DNA from: Lysobacterales bacterium
Lineage (GTDB): Bacteria; Pseudomonadota; Gammaproteobacteria; Xanthomonadales; SZUA-38
Assembly (NCBI GenBank): GCA_033722075.1
Contig: JAWVZU010000001.1
Location: 129-64,128 of the forward strand
Direction: 5' to 3'
DNA: 64,000 nucleotides
Shown: one piece after another, positions 6,719-33,387 of the stretch
Numbering within the stretch: the first letter of the stretch is position 1
How the letters are laid out: every line of letters starts with the position of its first letter
The notes under the pieces: model-generated
The model's input: only the letters and a program-made list of their open reading frames with translations
Database searches by the model: none
Told to the model about the DNA's origin: nothing
Made by a program: the position numbers and the translations under genes

Positions 6719-6895
6719 CGCCTTGTCCCGACAAAAGCGAATGAACCGGAAGTCCGGGAAGAGCCGGAAGCTAAGACAGTTGGATTAGCAGGCTACGCTC
6801 CGATTCCTTGTCATTGCGTCAATTCGTTGATTGCGTAGGGACTTCTCGCCCTTCTGCCCCTTCCGGTGCAATGTCTTTGGTGCGACAGGTAGAGC

Positions 6896-8317
6896 CTATT
6901 CGGCGGTTTCTTCCCTGGCCTGCCGGAGTGTCTTGCGGCCTTTCTTGGGGCCTTCGACCGCCTGCTGCAGTTCCTTCAGCGATTCCCCGACGAGGTCGGC
7001 CAGATAGGCCACGTCCGGCACCGCGTCGCGGCACGCCATCAAGCCGAAATCGACGCTGTCCCGGTAGCTCATCACCGTGATGTTCAGCGCCTGACCGTCC
7101 ACCAGCACCGACAAGGGATAATTGGCCTTCAATTCGGCACCGCCGAAATAGAGCTTCACCCGTGGGCCCGGGACGTTCGAGATCGTGACGTTCGCCGGCG
7201 GCGGAACCAGTCCGCTCACCTTGAAACGGTTCAGGACGGCAACGAGCCCCTGGGCAAATACGGCAAAACTCGTGGCTGCGGCGGGCGAGACCGCCGCAAC
7301 TTCGCGCTTCGCCTGAATCGTCGACTGGCCGATGGCATCGAGGCGATCCAGCGGATCCTCGAGGTTCGTGCCCAGTTTCGCCGCAACGTAGGTGATCTGG
7401 TTGCCGGCCCGGTTGATCTGACGGACGGAGACGGGCACCGTCGCCACCAGGGATCGTTCCGGCAGCGCATCCTTCTCGAGCAGATAACGTCGCAGGGCGC
7501 CGGCACAGATCGCCAGCACCACGTCATTCACTGTTGCACCCGTTTCCTTGCGAAGCTTCTTGATCTCCCGCAGGGACAGCGTCTTGGCCGCAAAGCGCCG
7601 CGCGCCGGAGATCGGGCAGTTGAAGCGTGACTTGGGCGCGGTGAACGGAACAGGCGAGTAGTCGGGTTTGAGGCCGACCGTCTTCAATCCCTGGCCGAGC
7701 AGCAGTCGTCCCAGTTCGGCGCTCATCTGCGCCTGGCTGATCACCCCCTTCGCGGTGCCGGTGATGCGCGAGATGAGCCCCCTGTCCGGCCGGGAAAGCT
7801 TGCGTTTCTTCAGGCCGGCCCAGGGTGCGCGAACCGGCGCCTCGGGATCCGGCGTGAAGCAGGATTCCAGGATCTCGATACCGCCCATGCCGTCGATCGC
7901 CGCGTGGTGCATCTTCATGTAGATCGCGAACTGGCGGCCGCGCAGGCCCTCGATGATGTGGAATTCCCAGAGCGGACGCTCCCGGTCCATGACCCGGCTG
8001 TGCAATCGGGAAACCAGGGACAGCAGGTCCTCCATGGATCCCGGCTTGGGCAAGGCCGAATGCCGGACGTGATAGTCGAGATCGAAATGCGGATCGACGA
8101 TCCATTCCGGCGTGCCCACGAGGGTTGCCGATTTCAGACGAACATTGAAGGGCTGGCCGGCGGATTGTTCGCGCAGCTGGGCCAGCAGGTCCCGGACGAA
8201 ATTGCCCTTGTACCCGCTGGGAATCTCGAACACGCCGAGACTGGCCACGTTGACCGGCGTCTTCTGGGTCTCGAGCGCCAGAAAGGCCAGATCCAGTGCA
8301 TTCAGCCGTTGTCCCAC
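6896..8317 (-). CDS. Wax ester synthase/diacylglycerol acyltransferase (WS/DGAT)
   Basis: 473 aa. HHAAIDGMGG is the HHxxxDG acyltransferase active site, and the length and layout fit WS/DGAT. Confidence 0.88.
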   Translation of the reverse strand: MGQRLNALDLAFLALETQKTPVNVASLGVFEIPSGYKGNFVRDLLAQLREQSAGQPFNVRLKSATLVGTPEWIVDPHFDLDYHVRHSALPKPGSMEDLLSLVSRLHSRVMDRERPLWEFHIIEGLRGRQFAIYMKMHHAAIDGMGGIEILESCFTPDPEAPVRAPWAGLKKRKLSRPDRGLISRITGTAKGVISQAQMSAELGRLLLGQGLKTVGLKPDYSPVPFTAPKSRFNCPISGARRFAAKTLSLREIKKLRKETGATVNDVVLAICAGALRRYLLEKDALPERSLVATVPVSVRQINRAGNQITYVAAKLGTNLEDPLDRLDAIGQSTIQAKREVAAVSPAAATSFAVFAQGLVAVLNRFKVSGLVPPPANVTISNVPGPRVKLYFGGAELKANYPLSVLVDGQALNITVMSYRDSVDFGLMACRDAVPDVAYLADLVGESLKELQQAVEGPKKGRKTLRQAREETAE

Positions 8318-8409
8318 ACCCTGCTCCTGCGATTTCGAACCGGCGGTTAGCCCGCCATGTCCGCGAAATCATCGCCGCGCCGGTCCGTGCGTGTCAAACG
8401 GGATCCGAC

Positions 8410-9225
8410 TCAATCACTCGCTTCGACCTGGAAGACGCGCCGCGTATCCTGGACATCGACTGCGGTGAGGGCGCCGCCCCAGACATAGCCCGTGTCCAGC
8501 CCCACTACACCCGAATCGCGGTACAGACCCAGCGCCGACCAATGGCCGAAGAAGATGGTGTGCGGCCAGGCTGTCCGGTCGGGCACCTCGTACCAGGGAT
8601 AGAATCCGTCCGGTTGTGTGCCCGGTGGGCCCTTGGCCCCGAACGCGATGTGCCCGTCGCGGTCACAGCAGCGCATCCGGGTCAGCACCGCCAATATCGT
8701 TCGCCACCGAACCGGGCCGGTGAAACCCGGATCGAACCGGTCCGGCTGCTTGCCGTACATCTGTTCCAGCAGTTCGTCGAAGCGGTCGCCCCGCAATGCC
8801 GACTCGACCTCGCCGGCCAGCTGGCGTGCCTTTGCCGGGGTCCAATCGGGTGCAATGCCGGCGTGAACCAGGGCAGCCTGCTTCTGGTCGTCGACGTGCA
8901 GCAGCGGACGCCGCCTCAACCAATCGAGCAATTCATCGCCGTCCGGCGCTTCGAAGATCGTCTTGAATTCGGGATTCGACTTGCGCTTTGCCGGCGGCTT
9001 TCGCCACTGGGCGAGAAGATGCAGATCGTGATTGCCGAGCACGACCAGGGCACTCGATCCAAGATCGCGGACCAGGCGGAGCACCTCGAGCGAGGCACCG
9101 CCGCGGTTCACCAGATCCCCGCAGAACCACAGGCGGTCCCCCGCCGGATCAAAGCGAAGCTTGTCCAGCAGGCGCTGGAGCGGTTCGAGAAAACCCTGGA
9201 TGTCCCCGATGGCGTAGATGCTCAC
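8410..9225 (-). CDS. apaH: Bis(5'-nucleosyl)-tetraphosphatase, symmetrical
   Basis: 271 aa with the metallophosphoesterase motifs IGDIQG, CGDLVNRG and GNHDLHLL. Confidence 0.92.
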   Translation of the reverse strand: MSIYAIGDIQGFLEPLQRLLDKLRFDPAGDRLWFCGDLVNRGGASLEVLRLVRDLGSSALVVLGNHDLHLLAQWRKPPAKRKSNPEFKTIFEAPDGDELLDWLRRRPLLHVDDQKQAALVHAGIAPDWTPAKARQLAGEVESALRGDRFDELLEQMYGKQPDRFDPGFTGPVRWRTILAVLTRMRCCDRDGHIAFGAKGPPGTQPDGFYPWYEVPDRTAWPHTIFFGHWSALGLYRDSGVVGLDTGYVWGGALTAVDVQDTRRVFQVEASD

Positions 9226-9245
9226 CGGGGCAGATTATAAGCGCT

Positions 9246-11102
9246 TCAGGGCGACGTGGCTTCCTGGGCCATCAGCGACGTGGGCGATTCCGAGCGGCAG
9301 ATTCGCGTTCCCGTCAGCGGCTGGCACTCCCGGACGCCGGAAAAACTTCCTTCGCCGGCGCTCAGGTTGAAATCGAAGCGCTGGGAGATGCGATCGACAT
9401 CCGCGGCGGCCACACTCGCGGTGTCAAAGCGCCATTGCTTGATCGCCCGCAGCGCGGCCCGGTCGAAAACGCGTCGCGGCCGACTGTCCACGATCTCGAT
9501 TTCCGTCGGCCTGCCCTCGGCGTTGATCGCGAACGCGACCTCGACGTAACCCTTCTGCCCGGACAGCCGCGCGCGCACCGGATACTCCGGAGAAACGCGC
9601 ACCAGCACCTCGGGACCCGGATCGACGGGCCTGGCTTCAGGTTGTCGAATCCGTTCGCCCGTCACGAGCAGATTTGCCGGGCGCGGGATGTCGAGCTCCG
9701 GCTGCGTGGAAAGAAACGGCTTGCTCCGTGCGCTTTCGACCACCTGCGGGTCGGCGATGGCCCGCTCGCTGGCCTGGCGACCGGATTGCGGTTCGGCGGA
9801 AGCCGCCGCCCCACTCACATCGGCAGGCGGCGCCGGCGCCTCACGGGTTTCGGTCACCACGGATTGCGCCACGGGCTCCTCGGCAGGCTCGGCCACGACC
9901 TTCACCCTATCGACCGGAGCCGGCTCCGGCTCGTCCTCGACTACCGACACACGGGCGTTCTCGAGCGGCGCAAGCAGAGCCTCCGAGTGCTGAGGCACCG
10001 TGGCAAGCAGCAATTCGTTGACCAGCGCATCACCGATCCGGGCTCGCTGCGCTTCGAAAGCGCCCAGCGGGTCCGCAAAGCGACCGGTCACCACAACGGT
10101 CAGACCCACGATGACCAGGAACAAGGTGTTGCCGGCAACGGCGTCGCGCGGTTCGGCCGCATGGTTGCAGACGATGCGCTCGATGCGTTCGAACAGTTGA
10201 CCGTCGGTAGCGGCCAGCGCGGGCACGACGTCCCCGGAACGGATCGATTCGAGATTGGTCAGGGCCTTGGCATACTCCAGCCGGTTTCCGCAGGTCTCCA
10301 CGACCAGATCGTCACAGCACTTCTCCCGCTCCTCGCGCACCCGGCGCGAAATCCACCCGACCACCGGGTGATAGAACAGCGCCGTTTCCACACAGACCTG
10401 AACCAGGTTGACCAGGTAATCCCAGCGGCGGACATGGCTCAACTCGTGGGCGATGACGAGTTCCAGCTGACGGGGCGAGAGGCCGATCAGGCTGGCCGTC
10501 GGCAAGAGGATGACTGGCTTTAACCATCCCATCACCGTGGGCACTTCGACAAGCGTGGATTCGAGAATGGAGACGGCCCGTTGAATCCCGAACAGCTCGC
10601 GCAAGGCAGCGGCCTTGTCCAGGAGAAGCTGGCTGGGCTGGCGGACACCGATGCGGGTCAGCTGACGCATGCGACGCCACTTTACGAACACCCGGGTCGA
10701 ATGAAGCGAAACGCCCAGGGCCCAGGCGGCCACGACCCAGGGAAGAAACCGCTCGATCATCCCGGCCCAGGAGAATGCGGATTCCGGATCGGCGGAGCCG
10801 AGCATCGAGCCGACGCCCATGGCGCCGAGCGCGTAGGACTCGGCGACGCCCGACTGTTCGATCCCGGGAAATACGATGAAGAAAGTGACGACGGGCGCGG
10901 CTGCCAGCGCGCCCATGGAGGCCAGACCTATCCAGTAACGCGGCGCCGGTGCGCCGTTTCGCAACAGACGCATGCTCAGCGCGAAAAATGCGCCAATGGC
11001 GGCTCCCTGCCACAGGAAATGGATCAGGGCCCATCCGAGGGCCTGAACAAAGACGTTCAGTGCATCCCAGTCGAGGAACATGGCTCCTCCGTCAAAATTC
11101 AA
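9246..11102 (-). CDS. BlaR1/M56-family membrane sensor-peptidase with a TonB C-terminal domain
   Basis: 618 aa. N-terminal TM segments, HELSHVRRWD (M56 HExxH), an Ala/Pro/Glu-rich linker, and a C-terminal PEYPVRARLSGQKGYVEVAFAINAEGRPTEIEIV TonB-C fold signature. Confidence 0.85.
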   Translation of the reverse strand: MNFDGGAMFLDWDALNVFVQALGWALIHFLWQGAAIGAFFALSMRLLRNGAPAPRYWIGLASMGALAAAPVVTFFIVFPGIEQSGVAESYALGAMGVGSMLGSADPESAFSWAGMIERFLPWVVAAWALGVSLHSTRVFVKWRRMRQLTRIGVRQPSQLLLDKAAALRELFGIQRAVSILESTLVEVPTVMGWLKPVILLPTASLIGLSPRQLELVIAHELSHVRRWDYLVNLVQVCVETALFYHPVVGWISRRVREEREKCCDDLVVETCGNRLEYAKALTNLESIRSGDVVPALAATDGQLFERIERIVCNHAAEPRDAVAGNTLFLVIVGLTVVVTGRFADPLGAFEAQRARIGDALVNELLLATVPQHSEALLAPLENARVSVVEDEPEPAPVDRVKVVAEPAEEPVAQSVVTETREAPAPPADVSGAAASAEPQSGRQASERAIADPQVVESARSKPFLSTQPELDIPRPANLLVTGERIRQPEARPVDPGPEVLVRVSPEYPVRARLSGQKGYVEVAFAINAEGRPTEIEIVDSRPRRVFDRAALRAIKQWRFDTASVAAADVDRISQRFDFNLSAGEGSFSGVRECQPLTGTRICRSESPTSLMAQEATSP

Positions 11103-11105
11103 CCG

Positions 11106-11507
11106 TTACCTGGACTCCTTCTCGAGCTCCTCGATCAACTGGCGGATCTTGGCCAGTTCGCCTTTCGAGGTGCCCTTGGTATTGCCCAGGGCGTGCAGCA
11201 CGAGTTCCGAGGGGGACCCGTCGAACACGCGAGTAACCAGATCAGTCACGAACTGATGCTGGGTGTAATCCTTGCTCATGGAGGGCTGATAAATGTGCGC
11301 CCGCTGGGAATCGTCCCGCTCCACCAGGCCCTTCGCATGCATGACCTGCAACAGCTTCAGAGCGGTCGTGTAACCGGTCGGCTCCTCAGCGTTCATCACT
11401 TCATGCACTTCCCGCACGGTACTCGGCCCCTTGTCCCAGAGGATCCGGAGGATTCCGAGTTCCGCTTCGGTCGGGCGTGGCAGTCCCTTCATCGTCGCTT
11501 TTCTCAT
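11106..11507 (-). CDS. BlaI/MecI/CopY-family transcriptional repressor
   Basis: LPRPTEAELGILRILWDKGPSTVREVHEVM is a winged-helix BlaI-type N-terminus. I moved the start to MRKATMKG (11507). It lies 3 nt upstream of the M56 sensor gene. Confidence 0.85.
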   Translation of the reverse strand: MRKATMKGLPRPTEAELGILRILWDKGPSTVREVHEVMNAEEPTGYTTALKLLQVMHAKGLVERDDSQRAHIYQPSMSKDYTQHQFVTDLVTRVFDGSPSELVLHALGNTKGTSKGELAKIRQLIEELEKESR

Positions 11508-11642
11508 CTGCGCATTCTCCGCGCCAACAGTGTTGTCGCGAGAGTATAAACCATCCACGATCCGTATCGTACGTGCCCGCTCGTTTTGATGCCTATCCCG
11601 AAAGTAAGGCAACAAATTACGGCCCGGCCCTTCACTTTAGAC

Positions 11643-13643
11643 TCAGAAAGGCGCGGAAGCGTTGCAATGCTGTTCGTTCAGGAATTGGGCCACGGCCTCG
11701 AGATCCGACACCAGCGGGAGGTCCGGGAGGCTGCGCAGAAACACGCGCCCGTAGCCCCGGCTGGTCAGCCGCGGGTCGCCGATCACGACGATGCCATAGT
11801 CGCTCTCGCTGCGGATCAACCGACCGAAACCCTGCTTGAGCGTGAGCACGGCCTGGGGCAGCTGTTCCTCCCGAAACGGGTCGCCGCCGGCTTCCCGGAT
11901 CCGCCGGATGCGTCCCTGCAGGATCGGATCGTCGGGGGAAGAGAAAGGCAGCTTGTCGATAACGACGCAGCGCAGCGAATCGCCGACCACGTCCACCCCT
12001 TCCCAGAAGCTGGCCGCCCCCAGCAACAGGGCACCGGGAGTCTGTTTGAATCTCTCCAGCAGGCGGTGGCGCGAATCTTCCCCCTGCACCAGCAGGGGCC
12101 AGCGACCCATGTTCTTCAGGCGCACGGCCGCATAGCGCAGGTTGCGGTGACTGGTGAACAGCAGGAATGCTCCTCCGTCGGTCAAAGACAGCACCGGCAC
12201 CACGGCCGCCAGGAGCCGATCGACGAAGTCGCTTGCGGACGGATCGGGCATGCCGGAAGGCTGGAACAGCAGGGCGCGCCGAGCATAATCGAAGGGGCTG
12301 TCCGCCTTGAGGCACTGGGGGTCGTCCAGTCCGAGCCGCCGATTGAACAGGTCGAAGCGACCGTCCGCAGCCAGGGTGGCTGAGGTGAAGACCCACGCCG
12401 CCTCCGTGCGCGACCGGTAGCCCCGCATCTCTTCGGCGATCTCGACCGGCGAAAGGTGCAGCGAGAAACCGCGACCCGCGGCCTCGTACCAGGCGATGAA
12501 ATCCGGATCTCCCGCTTCGATGGCGGCCAGACGGTCGAGGTGGGCACGGGTACGCCGCCAGCACGATTCGGTTCCCGGCGAGGCCTCGGCGAGGCCACTC
12601 AGCGCAGATGCCACCACGTCCAGGGCGTCGCGAACCTGGTTCAGCGCCTCCGCTGCCGGCCCCTCGTTGACCCAGGACCCCCGAGGCGGCAGGCGCTCCA
12701 GGGCCAGCCGGAATACCTTGGCAGACTGGCGCAGTTGATCCACCGGAGCCTGGACTACCCCCAGACCGCCCGGCACTTCGCCGGATTCCCTGAGGACGTC
12801 ATCCGCCAGGTCCCGAAGCATGCGCGACGAGAGACTCTGGCCGAAGAACAGGGTCGCCGTCTCCGGCACCCGATGGGCCTCGTCGATCACCACCACGTCA
12901 GCCTCGGGCAGGAGCTCACCAAAGCCGTCACGCTTGAGCGCCATGTCGGCAAACAGCAGGTGATGATTGACCACCACCACGTCCGCCGCCATCGCCCGGT
13001 GACGCGCCTGCACGAGGAAACAGTCCTCGAAGAAGGGGCATTCCTGCCCGAGGCAGTTCTCGGATGTCGAGGTGACCAGGGCCTGCCAGCCGCCGGTCTC
13101 CGCATCGCCGAACTCCGACAGGTCACCGGAACGGGTTTCTGCCGACCACCGGTCCAACCGGTCGAACAGGCGGAGCATGGCGGGGGACGGCTTCCCGCTT
13201 TCCCGACGGGCGCGGTCCAGGCGGTACAGGCAAAGGTAGTTTGCCCGCCCCTTCAGCAGGGCGGTTCGTGGGCGAATGCCGAGCACTTCGCTGATCGCCG
13301 GAAGATCCCGCTCGAACAGCTGATCCTGCAGTGTCTTCGTCCCGGTGGAAATCAGCGCTTTGGCGCCGCTGGTCAGGACGGGCGTGAGGTAGGCGAAGGT
13401 CTTGCCGATGCCGGTCCCGGCTTCGGCGACCAGGGTGGCGCGTTCGGCGATCGCCGTCTCGATGGCTTCGGCCAGGTTCTGCTGCCCCTGGCGAATCCGG
13501 AAACCGGAAAGGTGCGTAGCAAAAGGACCCGACTCACCCAGCAGCCGGCGCGCGTCGCCGCTCTCTTCAGAGCCGCTCACGGGCGCGCACGGGACAGGCT
13601 TCCGCCCGCTCACTGGCCGCAGATGCGAGATGGGCGTTTTCAA
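11643..13643 (-). CDS. DinG/YoaA-family ATP-dependent DNA helicase
   Basis: Walker A AEAGTGIGKTFAY, DEAH box VVIDEAHRV, and Cys cluster CLGQECPFFEDC (Fe-S type). The start is uncertain: TTG at 13643 or GTG at 13580. Either choice overlaps the upstream gene's stop. Confidence 0.85.
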   Translation of the reverse strand: MKTPISHLRPVSGRKPVPCAPVSGSEESGDARRLLGESGPFATHLSGFRIRQGQQNLAEAIETAIAERATLVAEAGTGIGKTFAYLTPVLTSGAKALISTGTKTLQDQLFERDLPAISEVLGIRPRTALLKGRANYLCLYRLDRARRESGKPSPAMLRLFDRLDRWSAETRSGDLSEFGDAETGGWQALVTSTSENCLGQECPFFEDCFLVQARHRAMAADVVVVNHHLLFADMALKRDGFGELLPEADVVVIDEAHRVPETATLFFGQSLSSRMLRDLADDVLRESGEVPGGLGVVQAPVDQLRQSAKVFRLALERLPPRGSWVNEGPAAEALNQVRDALDVVASALSGLAEASPGTESCWRRTRAHLDRLAAIEAGDPDFIAWYEAAGRGFSLHLSPVEIAEEMRGYRSRTEAAWVFTSATLAADGRFDLFNRRLGLDDPQCLKADSPFDYARRALLFQPSGMPDPSASDFVDRLLAAVVPVLSLTDGGAFLLFTSHRNLRYAAVRLKNMGRWPLLVQGEDSRHRLLERFKQTPGALLLGAASFWEGVDVVGDSLRCVVIDKLPFSSPDDPILQGRIRRIREAGGDPFREEQLPQAVLTLKQGFGRLIRSESDYGIVVIGDPRLTSRGYGRVFLRSLPDLPLVSDLEAVAQFLNEQHCNASAPF

Positions 13644-14061
13644 GGGCGGATTGGGCTTCGGCCACGGTGAGCCAGTTTCGGGAACACAGGGGACCCACCT
13701 GCGGGCCGAGGTGGAAGGACTTCAGGGCGTGCTCGATGGCGGCTTGAAAAGCCCCGGTCTCGAGTTCGATCTCTGCCAGGTGCTGCCAGATCCGCGGATC
13801 TCGCGGCGCCAGGTCGGCCGCCTGGATGAGCAGCCGCCGGGCCTCTTCGAGTTCGCCCCGGGCTTCGGCGGCATTGGCGCGTTCCAGCAGGATCTGCACA
13901 TCGCCGTCCGCAAGAGGCACCACCTCGATCACGCCGTCATCCTGGCGCGCCTGCGCGCGGATTTCTTCTGCCGCCTCTTCGTTGATCACGGGGGGCGGCT
14001 CGGTGGTGGCACAGGCGATCAGCGTCAGCGCCGCGAGGAAAATGGTCAGGTTCTTCCACAT
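13567..14061 (-). CDS. TPR-like lipoprotein (164 aa)
   Basis: I re-picked the start at MWKNLTIFLAALTLIACATT (signal peptide plus lipobox). Helical repeats with AEARGELEEARRLL and WQHLAEIELETGAFQAA look TPR-like. Confidence 0.6.
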   Translation of the reverse strand: MWKNLTIFLAALTLIACATTEPPPVINEEAAEEIRAQARQDDGVIEVVPLADGDVQILLERANAAEARGELEEARRLLIQAADLAPRDPRIWQHLAEIELETGAFQAAIEHALKSFHLGPQVGPLCSRNWLTVAEAQSALENAHLASAASERAEACPVRARERL

Positions 14062-14186
14062 GGGCGCGTAATGTACCAGATGCTGCCCGCGCTCCGACAC
14101 AACGACAACGGGCTTCGGGATGACAGCGCGGGGACAAAACGGCGATAATTCGCGGCCCGATTCCCAACTGGACGACATTCCCGACC

Positions 14187-17100
14187 TTGAGCGGTATTGC
14201 GCGCGAAGCCCCCCTGCTGTGCGTGTGGGGCGGAGAACCCCCACCGTCGCTGGCTGAATCCGGCAAGCTGGAAGTGCTGCAAGCGCCAGCGGAGCTGGGC
14301 CCGCTGGACGCGCTGCGCTGGGCATTCGAGCAATCCGGTGCTCGCGGCGTCGTGCTGGCCGGGGCCAGGGCGACAATCCCTTCCCACTGGTGGGATAGGT
14401 TGTCCGGCGCCGAACGACTCGATACGACGGCCGATGCGGTCACTGCGCTGGATCCTTCGGTTCCCGAGCTGAACCCGGCCCGGGAGAGGACCAGTGACGC
14501 GGCGATCTACCTCCTGTCCGACCGTTCCTTCTTCCCGCAGCGAGCCGCCAGCCCGAACCTCAGCTGGTGGTTGCGCCGGCCGGAGCGTCTCGACGAGGCT
14601 AAGAACTGGGCGGAGCTCGTCAGCGGCCGCGCGCGCATCCTGACCTGCGATCACTGTCTGGTCGATGTCGCGGAGATCGCCGGGACCGGGGGAACGGCGC
14701 TGGACCCACTGCGGCGCCGAATCCAATCGCTGCCGGCAGGAACCGCCGCCGGCATCTCGGGCTATCCCGGAGTCGACGGCCTGCCGGTCTGCCTGCACAT
14801 ACTCCATTCCTGGGGTGGCGGCGTGGCGCGCTGGGTGGCGGACTACGCCGCGGCAACAGGCGATCGCCACCACCTGGCGTTGATCGCCGTCGGGGACGAA
14901 ATGGGCGAGGACTGCGGGCGACAACTGGCCTTGTGCGCGGGCGGCGCGACGGAGGACCGCGCCATCGTGCGCTGGCCCCTGACCCAGTCGCTCCGGGCGA
15001 CCGAGGTCCATCACCCCGAGTACGAGGCGGTCCTCACCCAGCTCATCCGGGACTTCTCGGTCGGCCAGCTGATCATCTCCTCGCTGATCGGCCACAGCCT
15101 CGACGCGCTGGACGCGGGTCTCCCGACGCTGGTCGTCATGCACGACTATTACCCCGCATGGCCCCGGCTGGACATCAACTTCGAGGCGGACGAAGGCCCG
15201 TTCACGACGGACCGGCTGGCCGAGGAGCCGCCGACACAGCGCCTGAAGGACCTTACGCCAGAGCACTGGGAGAACGTCGCCGACGCCTATCGGCAGGCGC
15301 TCCACAAACCTCGCGTGAAGCTCGTCGCGCCGGATGAATCCATCGCTGCCAACCTGAAACGACTTGATCCGGCGTACGGCGAATTAAACGTCCGGGTGAT
15401 TCCCCACGGGCATCGGTCCCTCGACGCAACGTATCGCTATCAGCCTCGCGACATGATCGATCGCCTGAGGATCGTGGTGCCCGGTCGGATCAGCCCCAAC
15501 AAGGGCAAGCAACTGCTTCTCGACGCGCTCCCCAGGCTGCGGGACCACGCGGATCTCTATCTGCTCGGCAGTGGCTCGGACGGGGAGGATTTCTTCGGCT
15601 TGAGCGGCGTTCATGTCCTCCTCGACTATGACCGGAATGATCTGCCTGAGCTTTTGCAGGCAATCCAGCCCGACCTGGCTTTGCTGCCGTCGCTCACCTC
15701 CGAGACCTTCAGCTACACGCTGAGCGAGTTCTGGTCCCTGGGCGTACCGGTCCTGGCCGCCCGCGTCGGCGCCCTGGCCAATCGCATCGAACCGGACGAG
15801 ACCGGCTGGCTGTTCGAGCCGCAACCGGACCCGATGGTCGCGGCCATCGAGGCCCTGGGACCCGAAGAACTGGCCCATGTCGCCGAGAAGGTCCGGACCA
15901 TCACGCTCCCGGACCTCGGCGACATGGGCGCGGCCTACGACCGGCTCCAGGCGCCCCTCGATCCTGCGCCGTATTCACCGAAACTCTTCGACCCGGACCG
16001 GCTGCGCAACATCGAAGCCGCAACGGAACTGCTGCGCCTGAGCGACGAGGCCCAACGCCAGCGGGCTGCGATTCGCGATCTGCGCAAGGAGCTGCAAACG
16101 CGGGGCGAATGGGGTTTCGAGCTGGATCGTCGCCTGGCGCGGAGAACGGCATGGGCGAAGTCCCTCGAGGCCGACCTGGAAAAGGCACGGGCTCGCGTGG
16201 AAGCGCAGGACAGCGAACTGGCAGAGCGCACCGAGTGGGCCCTGAAGCTCGATGCCGAACTGAACGATCTTCGCCGTGAAGCGCAGGAGAAGCTGGACGA
16301 GGCCTGGGAGGAGATCGGTCGCCTGCGCGCCGTCGAGGAACACTACGAACAGATCATCGCCAGCCGGAGCTGGAAGCTGACCAAACCGCTGCGGTTTGCG
16401 GCGCGGCTCACCCGTCGGGCGCTGGGCATCGCAACCGGCCGGGGCGGCAAGGTCGTCCACCTCGGCCGGCGCACCCGGCAGAGCCTGCGGGTCCGCGGCG
16501 TCCGCGGTACGGCCCGACGCATCGGCCAGGAATTCCGCGGCAAATCGGCCCCGGTGCTGAAACCGCCGTCGGCGCGCCTGACGGAACAGTTCGATCCGCT
16601 GGAATTTCCGACCGTCGAGCAACCCCAGGTGTCGGTGATCATCCCGGTCCACAACCATTTCGAACATACCTACGCCTGCCTCCAGTCGCTGCTCGAGACG
16701 AGCAACGAGGCCTCCTTCGAGGTGGTGATCGTCGACGATGCCTCGACCGACCGAACCGGCGAGTTGCTGCCGCGCATCAGCGGTATTCAAACGCTGGTCA
16801 ACGAGGAAAATCTCGGCTTCATCGGTACCTGTAACCGGGGCGCAGCCCATGCCCGCGGCGACCACCTCGTTTTTCTCAACAACGACACGGCGGTTTCCGA
16901 CGGCTGGCTGGACGCGTTGCTCGGGACTTTCGAAAGCCATCCGGATGCGGGCCTCGTCGGTGCGCGCCTGGTCTACCCCGACGGCCGCCTGCAGGAAGCC
17001 GGGGGCATCGTCTTCTCGGACGGATCCGGCTGGAACTACGGGCGTTTCGAAGATCCCAGCCATCCGGCCTACAACTTCGTCCGGGAAGCCGATTACTGCT

Positions 17101-18503
17101 CAGGTGCCGCGATCGCCATTGCCCGGGAACTGTTCGAGACCCTGGGCGGATTCGACACCCGCTACGCGCCGGCCTACTACGAAGATACGGATCTCGCGTT
17201 TGCGGTGAGAAAGCACGGCCTCCGCGTCTACTACCAGCCGGCCGCCGTGGTCACCCACTTCGAGGGGATCACCTCGGGGACGGACACGAGCAGCGGAATC
17301 AAGCGCTACCAGGTCGTCAACCAGGAGAAGTTCCAGGAAAAATGGGCGGCCGAACTCAAACGTCAACCCACCTCCGGCACGCCCATCGGCCGCGCCCGCG
17401 AGCACGGGCGACCGCGGCGCGCTCTGATCATCGATGCCTACACGCCGGAACCGGACCAGGATTCCGGCTCGGTCCGCCTGACCAACCTGATGCAGCTGTT
17501 CCGCGAGCTCGGTTATCAGGTGACCTTCTGTCCGGACAACCGGGCCTACGTGGCGGGCTACACCGACGCGCTGACCCAGGCGGGCGTCGAGGTCTACCAC
17601 CATCCCTGGACGGATGGCGGCACCCGGATGTTCGAGGAGATCGGCGCGGAGCTGGACGTGGTGCTCATCTGCCGCCATTACATCGCGGCCAACTACATCA
17701 GGCGGGTGCGAGCCCATTGCCCCAGGGCCCGGCTGATCTTCGATACCGTCGATCTCCACTACCTGCGAGAACAGCGGCTGGCCGACCTGGAGGGCGACGA
17801 GAAACTGCGGGAAACGGCCGAGGAGACCCGTCGCGCGGAACTTGCCGTCGCCCGGCAGTCTGACCTGACGCTGGTGGTGAGCCCAGCCGAAGTCGAAGTG
17901 TTGGCCCAGGACGCCCCGGATGTCCGGGTCGGCGTCCTTTCCAATATTCACCCGGTGCATGGGCGACGCGCCGACTTCGAAGCACGGAAAGACCTCATGT
18001 TCGTCGGCGGCTATCAGCATCCGCCCAACATCGACGCAGTGCAGTGGTTCGTGGAGAAAATCTTCCCGGCCATCCGCGCGGAACTGCCGGAGATCCGTTT
18101 TCACATCATCGGCAGCAAGGCGCCGCCGGAGGTGCGCCGGTTGGGCCGGGCGGAAGGGGTCGAGTTCCACGGCTTCGTCAAGGACATCGAGCCCTTCTTC
18201 GACGGTTGCCGCTTGGCCGTTGCGCCGCTGCGCTACGGGGCCGGGGTCAAGGGCAAGGTCAACAGTTCCATGAGCTATGGCCAGCCCGTCATCGCTACCC
18301 CGACGGCGGTCGAGGGCATGGGGGTGACCAGCGGCGACGAGGTGCTCGTGGCGGAGACCGCGGAAGCATTCGCCGCGGCCGTCCTCCGGGCCTACAACGA
18401 TCCGGAACTCTGGCTCAGGCTCTCCGAAGGCGGATTGCAGAACGTGGAGGCGAACTTCTCCTTCGCCGCAGCCCGCGGCGCGCTGGAAAGACTGCTGCGT
18501 TGA
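14187..18503 (+). CDS. Giant multidomain glycosyltransferase. Order: unknown N-terminal region, GT-B (group 1), coiled coil, GT-A (family 2), GT-B (group 1).
   Basis: 1438-aa ORF with a TTG start. GT-B #1 spans about aa 200-560 (ETFSYTLSEFWSLGVPVLAARVGAL). A heptad-rich coiled coil spans about aa 610-725 and ends in SRSWKLTKPLR. GT2 spans about aa 814-1035 (VSVIIPVHNH..., VVIVDDASTD, YYEDTDLAF). GT-B #2 spans about aa 1078-1438 (APLRYGAGVKGKVNSSMSYGQPVIATP). Confidence 0.85.
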   Translation: MSGIAREAPLLCVWGGEPPPSLAESGKLEVLQAPAELGPLDALRWAFEQSGARGVVLAGARATIPSHWWDRLSGAERLDTTADAVTALDPSVPELNPARERTSDAAIYLLSDRSFFPQRAASPNLSWWLRRPERLDEAKNWAELVSGRARILTCDHCLVDVAEIAGTGGTALDPLRRRIQSLPAGTAAGISGYPGVDGLPVCLHILHSWGGGVARWVADYAAATGDRHHLALIAVGDEMGEDCGRQLALCAGGATEDRAIVRWPLTQSLRATEVHHPEYEAVLTQLIRDFSVGQLIISSLIGHSLDALDAGLPTLVVMHDYYPAWPRLDINFEADEGPFTTDRLAEEPPTQRLKDLTPEHWENVADAYRQALHKPRVKLVAPDESIAANLKRLDPAYGELNVRVIPHGHRSLDATYRYQPRDMIDRLRIVVPGRISPNKGKQLLLDALPRLRDHADLYLLGSGSDGEDFFGLSGVHVLLDYDRNDLPELLQAIQPDLALLPSLTSETFSYTLSEFWSLGVPVLAARVGALANRIEPDETGWLFEPQPDPMVAAIEALGPEELAHVAEKVRTITLPDLGDMGAAYDRLQAPLDPAPYSPKLFDPDRLRNIEAATELLRLSDEAQRQRAAIRDLRKELQTRGEWGFELDRRLARRTAWAKSLEADLEKARARVEAQDSELAERTEWALKLDAELNDLRREAQEKLDEAWEEIGRLRAVEEHYEQIIASRSWKLTKPLRFAARLTRRALGIATGRGGKVVHLGRRTRQSLRVRGVRGTARRIGQEFRGKSAPVLKPPSARLTEQFDPLEFPTVEQPQVSVIIPVHNHFEHTYACLQSLLETSNEASFEVVIVDDASTDRTGELLPRISGIQTLVNEENLGFIGTCNRGAAHARGDHLVFLNNDTAVSDGWLDALLGTFESHPDAGLVGARLVYPDGRLQEAGGIVFSDGSGWNYGRFEDPSHPAYNFVREADYCSGAAIAIARELFETLGGFDTRYAPAYYEDTDLAFAVRKHGLRVYYQPAAVVTHFEGITSGTDTSSGIKRYQVVNQEKFQEKWAAELKRQPTSGTPIGRAREHGRPRRALIIDAYTPEPDQDSGSVRLTNLMQLFRELGYQVTFCPDNRAYVAGYTDALTQAGVEVYHHPWTDGGTRMFEEIGAELDVVLICRHYIAANYIRRVRAHCPRARLIFDTVDLHYLREQRLADLEGDEKLRETAEETRRAELAVARQSDLTLVVSPAEVEVLAQDAPDVRVGVLSNIHPVHGRRADFEARKDLMFVGGYQHPPNIDAVQWFVEKIFPAIRAELPEIRFHIIGSKAPPEVRRLGRAEGVEFHGFVKDIEPFFDGCRLAVAPLRYGAGVKGKVNSSMSYGQPVIATPTAVEGMGVTSGDEVLVAETAEAFAAAVLRAYNDPELWLRLSEGGLQNVEANFSFAAARGALERLLR

Positions 18504-19238
18504 TCAGTCGCTCAGCACCGCCAGGATCTCAAGGGCCTCGCCGGTACCCTGCTCCACCGTGCTGACGACCATTTCCATGGTGATCTCTTCTTCGGGCTGC
18601 TCGCCGAATCCTGCCGCCCAGTTCGCGATCACGCACAGGCTCGCGTAGCGCAGCCCCAGTTCCCGGGCCAGAACCGCCTCCGGCATGCCGGTCATGCCGA
18701 CCAGGTGGCAGCCGTCCTGACCCATGCGCCGGACTTCTGCAGCGGTTTCGAGGCGAGGCCCCTGGGTAATGCCCAGGACGACCGAGGCCGCCTCGAATCC
18801 ACCGGCGGCCAGCAATGACGCGTGCAACGCCGGGTCATAAGGCTCGGTGAAGTCGACGTGCATGGGAATGTCCGGCAGTTCGCCGAAGTAGGTCCCCTCG
18901 CGCCCCCAGGTATAGTCGATCAGCTGATCCGGCACCGCCAGCGACCCCGGAGGAAACCGTTCGTCCAGGCTCCCGACCGCATTGATCGCGACCAGCTGCC
19001 GGGGAGCCAGCTGGGCCAGCGCCCAGACATTGGCCCGATAGTTGATCTGGTGCGGGTAGAGACCATGCCCGGCCCCATGCCGGGCCAGGAACGCGACATC
19101 GCGGCCGCGCCATCGGCCCCGCACGATCGGCGAGGACAGTTCACCAAAAGGGGTCTCGGGCCGCTCTTCCCATGCCTGTTGGAGCTCGCCGAAGCGATAC
19201 AGCCCGGTGCCGCCGATGACCGCCAGGTCGATACTCAT
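18504..19238 (-). CDS. mtnP: 5'-methylthioadenosine/S-methyl-5'-thioinosine phosphorylase
   Basis: 244 aa. AVIGGTGLY, the PNP/MTAP family layout, and VGMTGMPEAVLARELG. It is adjacent to hpt and near nagZ, an arrangement I recall from Pseudomonas-type genomes. Confidence 0.85.
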   Translation of the reverse strand: MSIDLAVIGGTGLYRFGELQQAWEERPETPFGELSSPIVRGRWRGRDVAFLARHGAGHGLYPHQINYRANVWALAQLAPRQLVAINAVGSLDERFPPGSLAVPDQLIDYTWGREGTYFGELPDIPMHVDFTEPYDPALHASLLAAGGFEAASVVLGITQGPRLETAAEVRRMGQDGCHLVGMTGMPEAVLARELGLRYASLCVIANWAAGFGEQPEEEITMEMVVSTVEQGTGEALEILAVLSD

Positions 19239-19771
19239 GGATCGATGGCGTAGATGGCCGGCAGGTGGCGGAAGTCGTCCTTGTAGTCCATCCCGCAGCC
19301 GAACAGGTACCGGTCCTCCACCTCCAGGCCGACGAAATCCGCATGGATGCCCGGAACCCGGCGATCATGCCGCTTGGCCACCAGCACCGCCGAGCGGACC
19401 GACGCCGCGCCATGCTCCTCGCAGTAGCGGATGATCGCTCCCAGGGTCGGGCCCTCGTCCAGGATGTCGTCCACGATGAGCAGGTTGCGATCCGCCAGCT
19501 CATGTTGCGGACGGTGAATCCAGTGCAGTTCGTCGCCACCCCGGGTGGCCCCGCGATAACGACTGACATGCAGGTAGTCCAGCTGGACCGGCATGTTCAG
19601 CCGCACCGCAAGGTGGGCGGCGGCGATCATTCCGCCGTTCATTACCGTCAGCAGGAGCAGCGGCTCCTCTCCATACTGGCCATTGATCTCCGCGGCCATG
19701 CGGTCATAGGCAGCCTCGACCTCGGCGGCCGAAACGACCAGTTCGGCCGAATCAGGAAGTTGCAGGGGCAT
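19235..19771 (-). CDS. Hypoxanthine-guanine phosphoribosyltransferase-like protein
   Basis: Start re-picked at MPLQLPDSAELV. LLIVDDILDEGPTL is the PRPP-binding motif. 4-nt overlap with the downstream phosphorylase gene. Confidence 0.85.
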   Translation of the reverse strand: MPLQLPDSAELVVSAAEVEAAYDRMAAEINGQYGEEPLLLLTVMNGGMIAAAHLAVRLNMPVQLDYLHVSRYRGATRGGDELHWIHRPQHELADRNLLIVDDILDEGPTLGAIIRYCEEHGAASVRSAVLVAKRHDRRVPGIHADFVGLEVEDRYLFGCGMDYKDDFRHLPAIYAIDP

Positions 19772-24552: not shown

Positions 24553-26583
24553 CTAGTTGAAGGTCGGCGATCCGGCTTCCGTCGCCGCTTTCACGCGCCG
24601 GATCAGCTGCTGAAAATCCACCTCGCGGGAATACCCGATCACGTCGATCCGCGGGATACCCGAGCCTTCGACGATGTAATAGCCCCCATCGGGCGCCGGG
24701 CGAACACCGGCCATGGAGCACACATTGTTGCGCAACCGGCAGGCGATCCCCAGCCGCTCGTAGCCGAAATCCTCGAAAAAGCGCAGAAAGGTGGAGGACA
24801 GCACCGCCGTCGGACCGCCACCGATCGACGTCAGGTTGTCGACTGCGCGCTGGCTGATGCGGTGGGTGGAGCGGTCGTTTTCGGGCGTCTTGAGCGTCAT
24901 GTCGAAGGCCACCGGCTGCCAGTCCAGCAGACGCAGGTTGCGCAGACCGCCCTCGACCCGCCCACGGATTTCACCGAAGGAAAATGCACCGGTCATCTGC
25001 CGCAGATCCAGGTTGGTCAGGATCAGGTCGCCGGCCAGCGTGGGCAGCACGCCGAAGAGTCGTTCCAGGCGGAGTTTTTCGAAGCGTACGGTGCCGTCGA
25101 AGACAGCAAGCTCAATCGCACCGCCGACCTCGACGATCTCGTCGCGCAGGCGGACCCGGGGAATCTCACCGGACAGGGTCCCGTTCAACGGCGGCCATTC
25201 CAGCGCCTCGGTCACCGGGCGCAGAGAGATCGGCTCGATGTCGGCCTCGAAGTCCAGGGTCATTTCGGCGCTGCCGTAGTCACTGAAAGCCAACGTTCGG
25301 ATCGTCGCAGCGCCATCGAAGATTCCCAGACGCAGCGGTTGCAGCAGCTGGAACTCGTTGGCGGCCAGGAAGAAGCGCGCTTCGCCCGGCGCGATTTCCA
25401 CCTGATAGATACCGGCGCGATCCCAGGCGAGGGCCGAGTCCGCGGAATCGCCTTCGGCACTGTAGTCCACCAGGCCATCGAGTGCTTCGAAAGCAAAACG
25501 CCCAGCACTGTCACGCACGTCGACCGAGCGAATATCGAGTGTCGCGTGCGCCAGTTCGGCGTCGGCCAACTCCATGCGTCCCCGCACCTTGCCGGCCAGG
25601 TCGAACCGACCGAGGCCGAGGGCCTGCACCAGATTGGCCAGATAGCGATCGTACACCTCCGGGAAAAGCAGGTGATCGAGTTCGACGGTCCAACGACCGG
25701 CAGCCAGGGACGACAGGTTGCCTTCGCCGGATAGGGAAAGGGAGAGCAACTCGCCATCGGTCAGCTCGGCCGACTCCACGGCCAGCACCTCCCCGGCCAG
25801 GTTGCCGGCCAGCTGGAGCCGGGGTCGGGCCTGGGCGAAATTCAGGTACAGGCTCCCGAAGAGTGCTTCCCCGCCGCTCGGCGCCAGGTCCACTTCGAAG
25901 GTGACAGCCTTGTCACCGATTTCACCGCTCGCCGAGAGGGTCAACCCCAGTTCGGCGCCGGCAACCGTCCCATCCGCGTTGTCGAAGCCAAGACCGGTCA
26001 GGGTCATTTCTGCAGTTGCGCTCGTGGTTTCAGATGATTCGGGCCGACGGATCGTGCCGTGTCCGCTGAGAGTTCCGCCATGGAGCGAATAGCCGTCAAG
26101 CAGGGGCGCAGCGAGCGACTCTACGGCCAGGTCGGAAAGCGTGTAGTCACCGGACAGCCCATCCTCGTCCAGGCTCGCACTGAAACTGACCTCCCCGCCG
26201 AAGAGCCCGCTCTGTCCCGACAGGCTGAGACGCTCTTCCTCAAACTCGTAGGTCCATCGGACCGTACCCTCCGTAGCGCCCCACGAAGCGTTGAACCGCA
26301 GCGTTCCCTCGCATCCCACCCGTTCTTCATCGAGGCGAAAGCGGGTGCACGCAAGAACCGGCTCACCAAAAACCCTTTCGCCTACTACGAGTTCCGCGGC
26401 GGTGGCCCGCGCACTGGTCGTTTCCGGGTTGAGGGACAGGTTGACTTCGACAGCCTTGCCGACGCCGGGCAGCTTCACCTCGGCTGCCGTGATCTCCAGA
26501 ACACCACCGGCATGGACCGGTTGCAGTATAGTCGTCAGACCCAGCAACCAGGCGGCACCCGCCGACGGCAATCGACATTTCAT
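24553..26583 (-). CDS. ydbH: YdbH-like AsmA-family intermembrane lipid-transport protein
   Basis: 676 aa with a signal/anchor MKCRLPSAGAAWLLGLTTIL. A long beta-rich repetitive body is followed by C-terminal STHRISQRAVDNLTSIGGG ... FGYERLGIACRLRNNVCSMAG, typical of the YdbH C-terminus. Confidence 0.8.
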   Translation of the reverse strand: MKCRLPSAGAAWLLGLTTILQPVHAGGVLEITAAEVKLPGVGKAVEVNLSLNPETTSARATAAELVVGERVFGEPVLACTRFRLDEERVGCEGTLRFNASWGATEGTVRWTYEFEEERLSLSGQSGLFGGEVSFSASLDEDGLSGDYTLSDLAVESLAAPLLDGYSLHGGTLSGHGTIRRPESSETTSATAEMTLTGLGFDNADGTVAGAELGLTLSASGEIGDKAVTFEVDLAPSGGEALFGSLYLNFAQARPRLQLAGNLAGEVLAVESAELTDGELLSLSLSGEGNLSSLAAGRWTVELDHLLFPEVYDRYLANLVQALGLGRFDLAGKVRGRMELADAELAHATLDIRSVDVRDSAGRFAFEALDGLVDYSAEGDSADSALAWDRAGIYQVEIAPGEARFFLAANEFQLLQPLRLGIFDGAATIRTLAFSDYGSAEMTLDFEADIEPISLRPVTEALEWPPLNGTLSGEIPRVRLRDEIVEVGGAIELAVFDGTVRFEKLRLERLFGVLPTLAGDLILTNLDLRQMTGAFSFGEIRGRVEGGLRNLRLLDWQPVAFDMTLKTPENDRSTHRISQRAVDNLTSIGGGPTAVLSSTFLRFFEDFGYERLGIACRLRNNVCSMAGVRPAPDGGYYIVEGSGIPRIDVIGYSREVDFQQLIRRVKAATEAGSPTFN

Positions 26584-27304
26584 GGCCTACCGCATCCTCA
26601 TTGCCGACGACAACCGGATCAACCGCGAATTCCTTGTTGGAGTACTGGCCGGCGAAGAGTATCAGATCGAGCAGGCGATGGAGGGCAGCGCGGCGATCGA
26701 GCTCTGCCGCAGGAACCGCTTCGACCTGGTGCTCATGGACATCCGGATGCCCGGTGTCGATGGCATCGAGGCCACCCGGGCGATCCGCAGCCTGCCCGGA
26801 CTGCAGGATCTGCCGATCGTCGCCTTGACTGCCGACGTCGCGCTTCAGCGGGATGCCATCAAAGACGAAGCCTTCGCAGCCACGCTGGTAAAACCCGTCT
26901 CCCGTCGCGAACTCCTCGAGACGCTCAACCGGCTCCTCGGCGCCACGCCTGCCGGAATCGAACTCCAGGAGAACCCGATCGCCATGGACGCCGCCCTGGC
27001 CGCCGCCGGCGGAAACAGGGAACTGGTGGGCCGACTGACCGCCATGCTGAGAAAAGAGTTGGACGATTTCGAACCTAAAATCTCCGCTGCGATCGATCGC
27101 GCGGATTGGCCGGCCGCCCGCGAACTGGTGCACAAATTGCGTGCGTCCGCGGGCTATTGCGGCGCCCGACCTCTCGCCACCGCCGCCGGGACGCTGGAGG
27201 AAGCTCTCGACAAGGGCGAAGGGGGGACGATCCGCGACCTCCAGGCACGATTGAAACGCGAGATGGCAATCCTGCGCACCCATCTCGACGAATCCACGGG
27301 CTGA
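26582..27304 (+). CDS. Response-regulator receiver fused to an Hpt phosphotransfer domain
   Basis: Start re-picked at MAYRILIADDN. It has the receiver motif DLVLMDIRMPGVDG and the Hpt motif HKLRASAGYCGA. No kinase gene is in the window. Confidence 0.85.
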   Translation: MAYRILIADDNRINREFLVGVLAGEEYQIEQAMEGSAAIELCRRNRFDLVLMDIRMPGVDGIEATRAIRSLPGLQDLPIVALTADVALQRDAIKDEAFAATLVKPVSRRELLETLNRLLGATPAGIELQENPIAMDAALAAAGGNRELVGRLTAMLRKELDDFEPKISAAIDRADWPAARELVHKLRASAGYCGARPLATAAGTLEEALDKGEGGTIRDLQARLKREMAILRTHLDESTG

Positions 27305-33289: not shown

Positions 33290-33387
33290 TGCACAAGTTG
33301 CGCTTGCCCATCGGCGCAATGCCTGCATGCAGGTCCAAAACAGAATAGAATTAGCTATAAAATACCTGGAACGGGGGACGGTTCAGG

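Follow-up and report, generated by a model that had tools for sequence, protein, structure and literature searches.

How does an enzyme that joins several glycosyltransferase (GT) modules in one chain come to be encoded by a lone gene, and what might it make? The question is raised by an open reading frame (ORF) of 1438 residues at positions 14187..18503 on the forward strand of a 64,000-nucleotide stretch of a Lysobacterales bacterium (assembly GCA_033722075.1, contig JAWVZU010000001.1, positions 129 to 64,128; hereafter this whole stretch is called the window). We show that the ORF is continuous here and in many related genomes, and sequence comparison indicates that the GT gene is a vertically inherited core gene of the Lysobacterales (Xanthomonadales in the broad sense) and not a translocated O-antigen paralogue. 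As to its function, we favour, with moderate confidence, a cytoplasmic enzyme, peripherally bound to the membrane, that would act on a lipid-linked glycan both as polymerase and as chain-length regulator, with initiation, precursors and export encoded elsewhere.

Architecture and integrity of the protein

The ORF begins with a TTG codon, ends with the stop codon at 18501-18503 and is the longest of the region; its G+C contents by codon position (0.82 at the third position, GC3, vs. 0.47 at the second, GC2) are coding-typical for the window. The start matches the N-termini of 39 homologues in an alignment and was also picked by the gene caller on an independent ENA scaffold; the frame is uninterrupted, and residues 1-1437 align with homologues, in keeping with a preliminary description, made from the sequence alone, of a stand-alone 1438-residue multi-GT polypeptide.

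Pfam matches and two AlphaFold2 models built on family alignments (residues 1-640, predicted local distance difference test score (pLDDT) 92.4 and predicted template modelling score 0.91; residues 600-1438, pLDDT 88.1) bear out the domain order given in that description: an N-terminal region, a GT-B module, a coiled coil, a GT-A module and a second GT-B module. The motifs quoted with it are also in place (SRSWKLTKPLR at 726-736, DDASTD at 850-855 and YEDTD at 998-1002). Invariant catalytic-type residues are retained in all three GT modules across 54 orthologues, and a scan of the protein against NCBIfam returned sub-threshold names only (stp1, MftF and EpsD).

The first GT-B module (GT-B1, residues 197-590; 14775..15956, + strand) has the features of CAZy family GT4 by Pfam, Foldseek and motif: a GT-B fold, a PF00534-type C-terminal domain (PF00534 at 428-556, 76 bits against a cutoff of 26.4) and an EX7E motif (E506 and E514); it also carries an HxWGGG loop (204-212). 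Its best Foldseek matches in the PDB are the GT4 enzymes HepE, PglA, SdgB, PimA and MshA (E ~1e-11), and H204, W209, G210-212, H319, D320, K439, E506 and E514 are invariant across 54 sequences. The GT-A module (residues 806-1060; 16602..17366, + strand) shows, by Pfam, motifs and Foldseek, the features of family GT2: a GT-A fold, PF00535 (816-947, 92.7 bits against a cutoff of 23.3; PF00535 and PF13641 together span 813-1027) and the acidic nucleotide/metal motifs D850-D851, N898-N899-D900 and E999-D1000-T1001-D1002, invariant across the 54 orthologues; Foldseek and PDB sequence searches matched it to GT27/GT2 enzymes. The second GT-B module (GT-B2, residues 1080-1438; 17424..18500, + strand) is GT4-like and of PF13692 type (1268-1405, 147.7 bits against a cutoff of 27), with PDQDSGSxR, FDTVDLH and RYGAGVKGKVN invariant among the orthologues and with BshA, MshA and PglA as Foldseek matches. 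Its match to TIGR03087 (stp1, a PEP-CTERM/XrtA-associated GT) reached 146.6 bits, under the cutoff of 316.65, and covered profile positions 156-394 only. Because the EX7E motif is absent from GT-B2, the mechanistic class of this module is not settled.

The region of about 195 residues ahead of GT-B1 had been called unassignable. It is indeed weakly conserved, being the least conserved portion of the protein with only L43 and P65 near-invariant, and it gave zero matches in a profile search of PDB sequences, but it is modelled as a folded alpha/beta domain (residues 1-190; 14187..14756, + strand) with pLDDT mostly above 90 and alternating strands and helices. Given this strand/helix order and a weak hhalign match to the protein's own GT2 module (probability 40%, E 3e-4; residues 36-87 on the DxD strand region), the domain may be a degenerate GT-A remnant that has lost its DxD motif, which we offer as an unproven hint.

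Between GT-B1 and the GT2 module, residues 603-724 (15993..16358, + strand) form one uninterrupted helix of 122 residues in the model, ~18 nm long if straight. Pro and Gly are almost absent from the stretch 605-725, of which 43-54% is charged, and a single heptad register is kept for ~80 residues, so that model and heptad analysis agree with the coiled coil described earlier. The coil is net acidic, contains R(T)xWAxxL repeats and is followed by the kink motif SRSWKLTKPLR (residues 726-736; 16362..16394, + strand), which interrupts the helix in the model; W729, T732 and R736 are invariant, and the motif is present in 46 homologues. Next comes a linker (residues 737-805; 16395..16601, + strand) with a net charge of +12 and a conserved R..SLR.RG..GT..R motif; in 36 homologues it has ~78 residues and a charge of +5 to +14, the 78 residues of the window's copy being the family norm. 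AlphaFold2 predicts a second helix at 727-783, with low confidence, and the amphipathic peak lies at 729-749; we infer that the basic linker is a membrane-proximal element.

No membrane-spanning segment was found in the protein (top 19-residue Kyte-Doolittle hydropathy, 1.23), and the modules that Pfam and NCBIfam recognise in it are all of GT1/GT4 or GT2 type, with no initiating polyprenyl-phosphate sugar-phosphate transferase domain. As it has no membrane, export or initiating domain, the enzyme must rely on genes elsewhere. The earlier suggestion of a self-contained enzyme is therefore not supported, and the version in which the protein both polymerises and exports a glycan is excluded by the missing membrane domain.

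The structural matches also bear on a second early suggestion, namely that the enzyme is a protein glycosyltransferase, which would place a short glycan on a cytoplasmic or pre-export protein recognised by the coil and the N-terminal domain. The nearest solved structures of the GT-A module are polypeptide GalNAc-transferases; SdgB, matched by GT-B1, is a protein-modifying GT4 enzyme; and a Ser/Thr kinase gene often lies downstream (28 loci). However, these structural matches, at 14-23% identity, are generic for GT2/GT4 folds, the genes adjacent to the GT gene include no conserved acceptor candidate, and its relatives accompany lipid-linked glycan genes. We found no specific support for protein glycosylation and regard it as improbable.

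Could the long ORF be an assembly fusion of two genes, of ~800 and ~620-700 residues? A near-identical record might suggest so: scaffold_161 of ENA ERZ28654005, which is 99.83-99.89% identical to window positions 6691-28503 and comes from essentially the same organism, splits the GT gene into calls of 835 and 622 residues. NCBI moreover lists proteins of 698 and 709 residues (P0207 and P0129) at two related loci, L019 and L039, and genuine forms of ~700 residues exist. The ENA split, however, is explained by a scaffold join made of ten Ns, 32 unplaced nucleotides and a 14-nucleotide duplicated contig end, with a net gain of 56 nucleotides, and the two NCBI proteins are internal-start calls in frames that have no upstream stop. 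A homology search returned ~90 clusters of 1430-1600 residues that have the same Pfam set and align over 86-99% of the query at 40-53% identity. When one genome per species was scanned, more than 595 related stretches were obtained, of which the best 80 were examined; ~55 of these 80 have a continuous frame of 1400-1700 residues that includes the GT-B1 loop and the SxSW motif. Among the carriers are complete or isolate genomes, namely those of Wenzhouxiangella sp. AB-CW3 (CP061368), Marinicella sp. W31 (CP171822), Tahibacter soli, Arenimonas soli, A. metalli, Dokdonella immobilis and Pseudomarimonas salicorniae, and the linker of the window's copy has the usual family length. A fusion, already largely refuted by these frames, deserves hardly any credence, and the one split copy is a scaffold-gap artefact.

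The ENA break (window 16582-16595; L090 9906-9961) falls at codon ~799-803, the border between the N-terminal half and the part that corresponds to the short forms described below. The 32 nucleotides at the junction have no placement anywhere in the window; they could stem from strain heterogeneity. For P0207 and P0129 (L019 12220.., L039 12652..), the NCBI annotation covers the C-terminal ~700 residues only and begins just past SWRxTxPLR; it is possible that an internal translation start in such loci yields a free polymerase half. As such records keep only the C-terminal ~700 residues of long ORFs, the family is systematically under-annotated, and its public annotations are often wrong, some being split at scaffold gaps and some given internal starts.

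Order-wide conservation, coil length and proposed function

Related loci in the Lysobacterales share one gene order: DinG, a tetratricopeptide repeat (TPR) lipoprotein, usually PBP1B, the GT gene and RelA/SpoT. DinG and the lipoprotein lie upstream of the GT gene in ~45 loci, and clustering of the neighbours of related loci gave PBP1B (43), DinG (40), RelA/SpoT (40), HrpA (28), the Ser/Thr kinase (28) and TsaB (21), and no transporter. Orthologues thus occupy a conserved housekeeping locus, and the notion that homologues are always embedded in O-antigen clusters fails. Given that ~55 species-representative genomes share the architecture and the site, with no transporter or sugar-precursor gene close by, the GT gene is neither an assembly fusion nor a translocated O-antigen paralogue. 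Horizontal transfer was considered and rejected, as the GC content of the gene equals that of its flanks and synteny is order-wide.

What varies within this conserved setting is the coil. Among full-length orthologues, the distance from EX7E to SxSW ranges from 165 to 303 residues, whereas that from SxSW to LNND in the GT2 module is 168-185 residues; the coil is net acidic and the linker always basic (+5 to +14) in the homologues compared. Because the first span varies while the second span and the linker length stay constant, the sequences fit a variable ruler joined to a constant, probably membrane-proximal hinge.

The family also includes short forms of ~700 residues, which correspond to residues ~755-1437 (linker end, GT2 and GT-B2). 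A short form occupies the same PBP1B-adjacent site in Lysobacter and close relatives (Xanthomonadaceae, Noviluteimonas); others, in Rhodanobacter and Dyella, showed no PBP1B/DinG neighbours, Pseudoxanthomonas (CP157201) carries a short form as well, and many more were among the results of a second homology search. The C-terminal half is better conserved than the N-terminal half (45-59% vs. 29-43% identity). The existence of short forms indicates that the C-terminal pair of modules is an autonomous core and the N-terminal half an accessory cassette.

For the acceptor, the division between polymerase and terminator roles, attachment of the linker to the membrane, coil oligomerisation and glycan export, we infer the following scheme. 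The C-terminal pair, an inverting GT2 and a GT4-like GT-B module, would alternately add sugars to a lipid-linked acceptor at the inner membrane face, where the conserved basic linker would keep it; the acidic coiled coil would oligomerise and project the N-terminal GT4 module and its accessory domain ~18 nm away; only sufficiently long chains would reach that module, which would add the terminal (capping) sugar; and genes elsewhere in the genome would provide for priming (a step of WecA/WbpL type), sugar nucleotides and export, the last most likely by Wzm/Wzt. Under CAZy family rules, GT2 enzymes invert and GT4 enzymes retain. Since the modules belong to these two families, the product would be a repeat with two linkage types and an alpha-linked cap added by GT-B1.

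Several observations weigh against this scheme. O-antigen genes are normally hypervariable and clustered, whereas the GT gene is vertically conserved with flank-like GC. No wzm/wzt, initiating transferase or precursor gene is present in the window, nor is any such gene found within 10 kb on either side in ~40 orthologous loci. By Foldseek, the N-terminal GT is an ordinary GT4 enzyme and not one of the known terminator types (GT99, GT137 or kinase/methyltransferase). Two of the three GT-B1 relatives named below also lack an adjacent transporter. Finally, oligomerisation of the coil and membrane binding by the linker are predictions.

Strict vertical inheritance in a housekeeping setting and a GC content like that of the flanks would be expected of core or conserved envelope structures rather than of O antigens, and it is possible that the enzyme builds a defined, non-polymeric oligosaccharide (an outer-core extension of lipopolysaccharide (LPS) or a glycolipid head group), each module adding one sugar and the coil serving as a dimerisation element or scaffold; GT4 and GT2 enzymes are common in core and glycolipid synthesis, and PimA and LPS GTs are among the Foldseek matches. 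An 18-nm spacer that varies by up to ~130 residues beside a constant linker is, however, hard to understand as a simple dimerisation element, short forms without the whole N-terminal half would alter a fixed structure, and relatives occur in polymer-type clusters. We regard a fixed oligosaccharide as a doubtful explanation.

Relatives from outside the conserved locus give some indication of the pathways in which such enzymes act. Residues 1-800, run with HMMER against 1.84 billion representatives, matched 400 proteins at E<=1e-30, including a class of ~740 residues related to GT-B1 (P0324, P0310 and P0348; 38-41% identity over residues ~195-595). These uncharacterised GT4 proteins, encoded in modules of GT2, unknown, GT4 and GT genes, resemble our enzyme in the GT-B1 region but stand alone, with a different N-terminus of ~250 residues and no fused coil, GT2 or second GT4; one of them (743 residues, 41% identity) is encoded directly downstream of wzt (ABC_tran + Wzt_C) and wzm. 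More remote homologues, related to the protein as a whole, occur in ordinary glycan clusters with WecA-type PF00953, WbpM-type and WsaF-type genes. Betaproteobacterial homologues are 36-49% identical: one (locus L075) is encoded downstream of gmd (448 bits, above the equivalog cutoff of 415), a short-chain dehydrogenase/reductase (SDR) and a methyltransferase, and beside another (locus L077) are genes for a polyprenyl-phosphate GT, for a GtrA-domain membrane protein and for a methyltransferase, together with galU. To judge from such neighbours, the glycans of these lineages might contain 6-deoxyhexoses, bear methyl caps and be decorated in the periplasm, hints that are not confidently transferable to the window organism. 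In L075, from a metagenome-assembled genome, the island at 6721-15411 comprises gmd, the SDR, the methyltransferase and a homologue of 1516 residues, with a second methyltransferase on the opposite strand; it lies between ppiD and hupB-lon-clpX-clpP-tig and holds no transporter.

The L075 unit (gmd-SDR-methyltransferase-GT-methyltransferase, between ppiD and hupB-lon-clpXP) could point to an intracellular glycan that is never exported, such as a methylated 6-deoxyhexose or hexose oligomer, which would account for the lack of a transporter; ManT, of the mycobacterial methylmannose polysaccharide pathway, is also among the Foldseek matches of both GT-B modules. Yet methyltransferases are absent beside the Lysobacterales orthologues, the ManT matches reflect generic GT4 similarity, the polyprenyl-phosphate GT and GtrA-domain protein of L077 point to periplasmic decoration of an exported glycan, and one relative adjoins wzt-wzm. 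An intracellular product appears very unlikely.

In its most far-reaching form, the proposed function would have the enzyme make a lineage-wide "common antigen" of the Lysobacterales from one orphan gene retained beside PBP1B/LpoP and RelA, the half with terminator and ruler being a detachable cassette; we consider this a slim possibility. Wenzhouxiangella, Marinicella, Arenimonas, Dokdonella and the window organism have the cassette, Lysobacter lacks it at the same site, and it is missing from Rhodanobacter too; nature would then already have run ruler-deletion and ruler-length experiments. A still more unusual variant would do without a dedicated Wzm/Wzt exporter, or would couple the glycan functionally to cell-wall synthesis via the divergent promoter region shared with ponB.

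Genes beside the glycosyltransferase and elsewhere in the window

The preliminary description had named a TPR lipoprotein and a purine-salvage phosphorylase as the neighbours of the GT gene, and had noted the absence of wzm/wzt, flippase, polymerase and sugar-nucleotide genes beside it. Both neighbours are there. Upstream, at 13567-14061 (- strand), lies the gene for the lipoprotein, which has a signal peptide and lipobox (MWKNLTIFLAALTLIAC); downstream, at 18504-19238 (- strand), lies a gene for a phosphorylase of the PNP/MTAP family. The absences extend to the ~50 ORFs scanned across the window, among which no ABC-2 transporter, flippase, Wzy, Wzz or recognisable sugar-nucleotide gene was found; the sole SDR of the window (28185-29174, - strand) has a sub-threshold HpnA-like match.

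The upstream block, from which the GT gene diverges, comprises WS/DGAT, a metallophosphoesterase, a BlaR1-like M56/TonB_C protein, BlaI, the DinG helicase and the lipoprotein; PNP/MTAP, HPRT, MscS, NagZ, CYTH and RlmD converge on the GT gene from the other side. The window as a whole is of housekeeping character, and none of its other ~35 ORFs relates to glycan export or precursors. The window differs from its relatives in having no PBP1B gene between the lipoprotein and the GT gene and in its other downstream block. The lipoprotein was considered as a partner of the GT enzyme and set aside: it matches LpoP, the PBP1B activator of P. aeruginosa (6w5q), over the whole domain (E 1e-3), and it adjoins the PBP1B gene in 43 related loci (L001, L003 and 41 others). 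It is more likely an LpoP-type partner of PBP1B.

A consensus scan found a promoter-like ATGACA-18 nt-GATAAT at 14120..14149 (+ strand), ~38 nucleotides 5' of the TTG start, with 10 of 12 matches; it is the sole such match in 13500-19400, where shuffled sequences gave a mean of 0.6, and it is a candidate promoter of the GT gene, on suggestive grounds only. At the other end, the stop codons of the GT gene and the convergent PNP/MTAP-family gene are adjacent at 18501-18506, with zero intergenic bases, and no terminator-like hairpin lies between the two genes there.

Elsewhere in the upstream block, one gene (9246-11636, - strand) joins the M56 peptidase of BlaR1 type to a C-terminal TonB domain and is paired with that of the BlaI-type repressor, and this pair is conserved beside DinG in several related loci (L003, L005). 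The WS/DGAT gene (wax-ester synthase/diacylglycerol acyltransferase; 6896-8368, - strand), also in the conserved block, suggests neutral-lipid storage in the window organism. Further downstream, two ORFs on opposite strands, 31922-33382 (-) and 33361-34662 (+), both encode a FimV N-terminal Ig-like domain and overlap by 22 nucleotides at their upstream ends (stop-to-stop coordinates). Three large ORFs (24553-26586, -; 375-1715, +; 62737-63999, -) have coding-like GC3 and no Pfam or NCBIfam match; the ENA scaffold, too, has a gene call for the one of 641-677 residues.

Comparison with known chain-length systems

To our knowledge, coiled-coil length rulers have been described for only a few O-antigen systems of enterobacteria, in every case within transporter-containing clusters. 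A full-text literature search for the SWRxTxPLR motif found no paper, and a literature search for Lysobacter/Xanthomonas work on the GT gene found nothing relevant. While the architectural principle is known, the GT4-coil-GT2-GT4 composition, the extra N-terminal domain, the SxSWRxTxPLR kink, the basic linker and the occurrence as a single core gene with long and short forms distinguish the family; it is also unusual that the gene stands alone throughout the order and that its orthologues form a natural series of ruler lengths. If our proposal is correct, the family extends the ruler principle to a new combination of GT families, and a ruler enzyme can be inherited vertically as a core function of one gene; the family supplies a natural series of coil lengths (~80-210 residues) along with ruler-less short forms.

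An extended coiled coil has been described as a characteristic marker of chain-terminating, ABC-transporter-dependent assembly, and the single chain of WbbB runs from an N-terminal terminator GT through such a coil to a C-terminal pair of polymerase GTs (PMC11231755, PMC9587256). The WbbB enzyme of Klebsiella pneumoniae O12 and Raoultella terrigena resembles ours: both are single cytoplasmic chains without a transmembrane segment, and in both a long coil lies between an N-terminal GT and two C-terminal GTs; helix 603-724, between GT-B1 and GT2/GT-B2, separates distal from polymerase-side modules as the WbbB coil does. The families differ. The WbbB terminator is a GT99 beta-Kdo transferase, whereas the N-terminal GT of our enzyme is GT4-like with EX7E, and its 50 best Foldseek matches in the PDB are GT4-type or other classical GT-B enzymes, not GT99. 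The PDB includes WbbB GT99 structures. A PDB sequence search with the protein matched no WbbB chain, and no WbbB-type fold stood at the top of either Foldseek search. The WbbB polymerase modules were reportedly assigned to GT102 and GT103 by Clarke et al. in 2020, and the C-terminal modules of our enzyme are instead PF00535 GT2 and PF13692 GT4-like; it also has the extra N-terminal domain and the conserved basic linker, and its gene is not in a wzm/wzt cluster.

ORF6 of K. pneumoniae O7 likewise combines a distal terminating module, a coil and C-terminal polymerase GTs in one protein (PMC11231755), but with a methyltransferase-kinase terminator, a GT2 + GT2 polymerase plus a separate GT, and a cluster with wzm, wzt and rml. 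In the WbdD/WbdA pair of E. coli O9a and K. pneumoniae O3, the coil ruler and a membrane-proximal basic/amphipathic end that positions the polymerase recall our enzyme, and the split of functions between two proteins recalls its long and short forms; WbdD, however, is a kinase and methyltransferase without a GT, WbdA is a separate GT4-GT4 protein, and both are encoded beside wzm/wzt. Pfam gave no match to a kinase or methyltransferase, as found in WbdD-type terminators, in our protein, whose distal modules are GT4 and the alpha/beta domain. Nor does it resemble synthases such as BcsA, hyaluronan synthase and PgaC, in which a GT2 domain is set in a membrane channel: the PgaC model scored 44 bits against a cutoff of 422, and the protein has no hydrophobic segment. 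The analogy with WbdA/WbdD drawn at the outset thus stands as far as the coiled-coil ruler of ABC-transporter-dependent assembly is concerned, whereas the closest precedent is WbbB (PMC11231755). Because its modules belong to other GT families, the enzyme is an analogue of the WbbB-type enzymes and not a member of their group.

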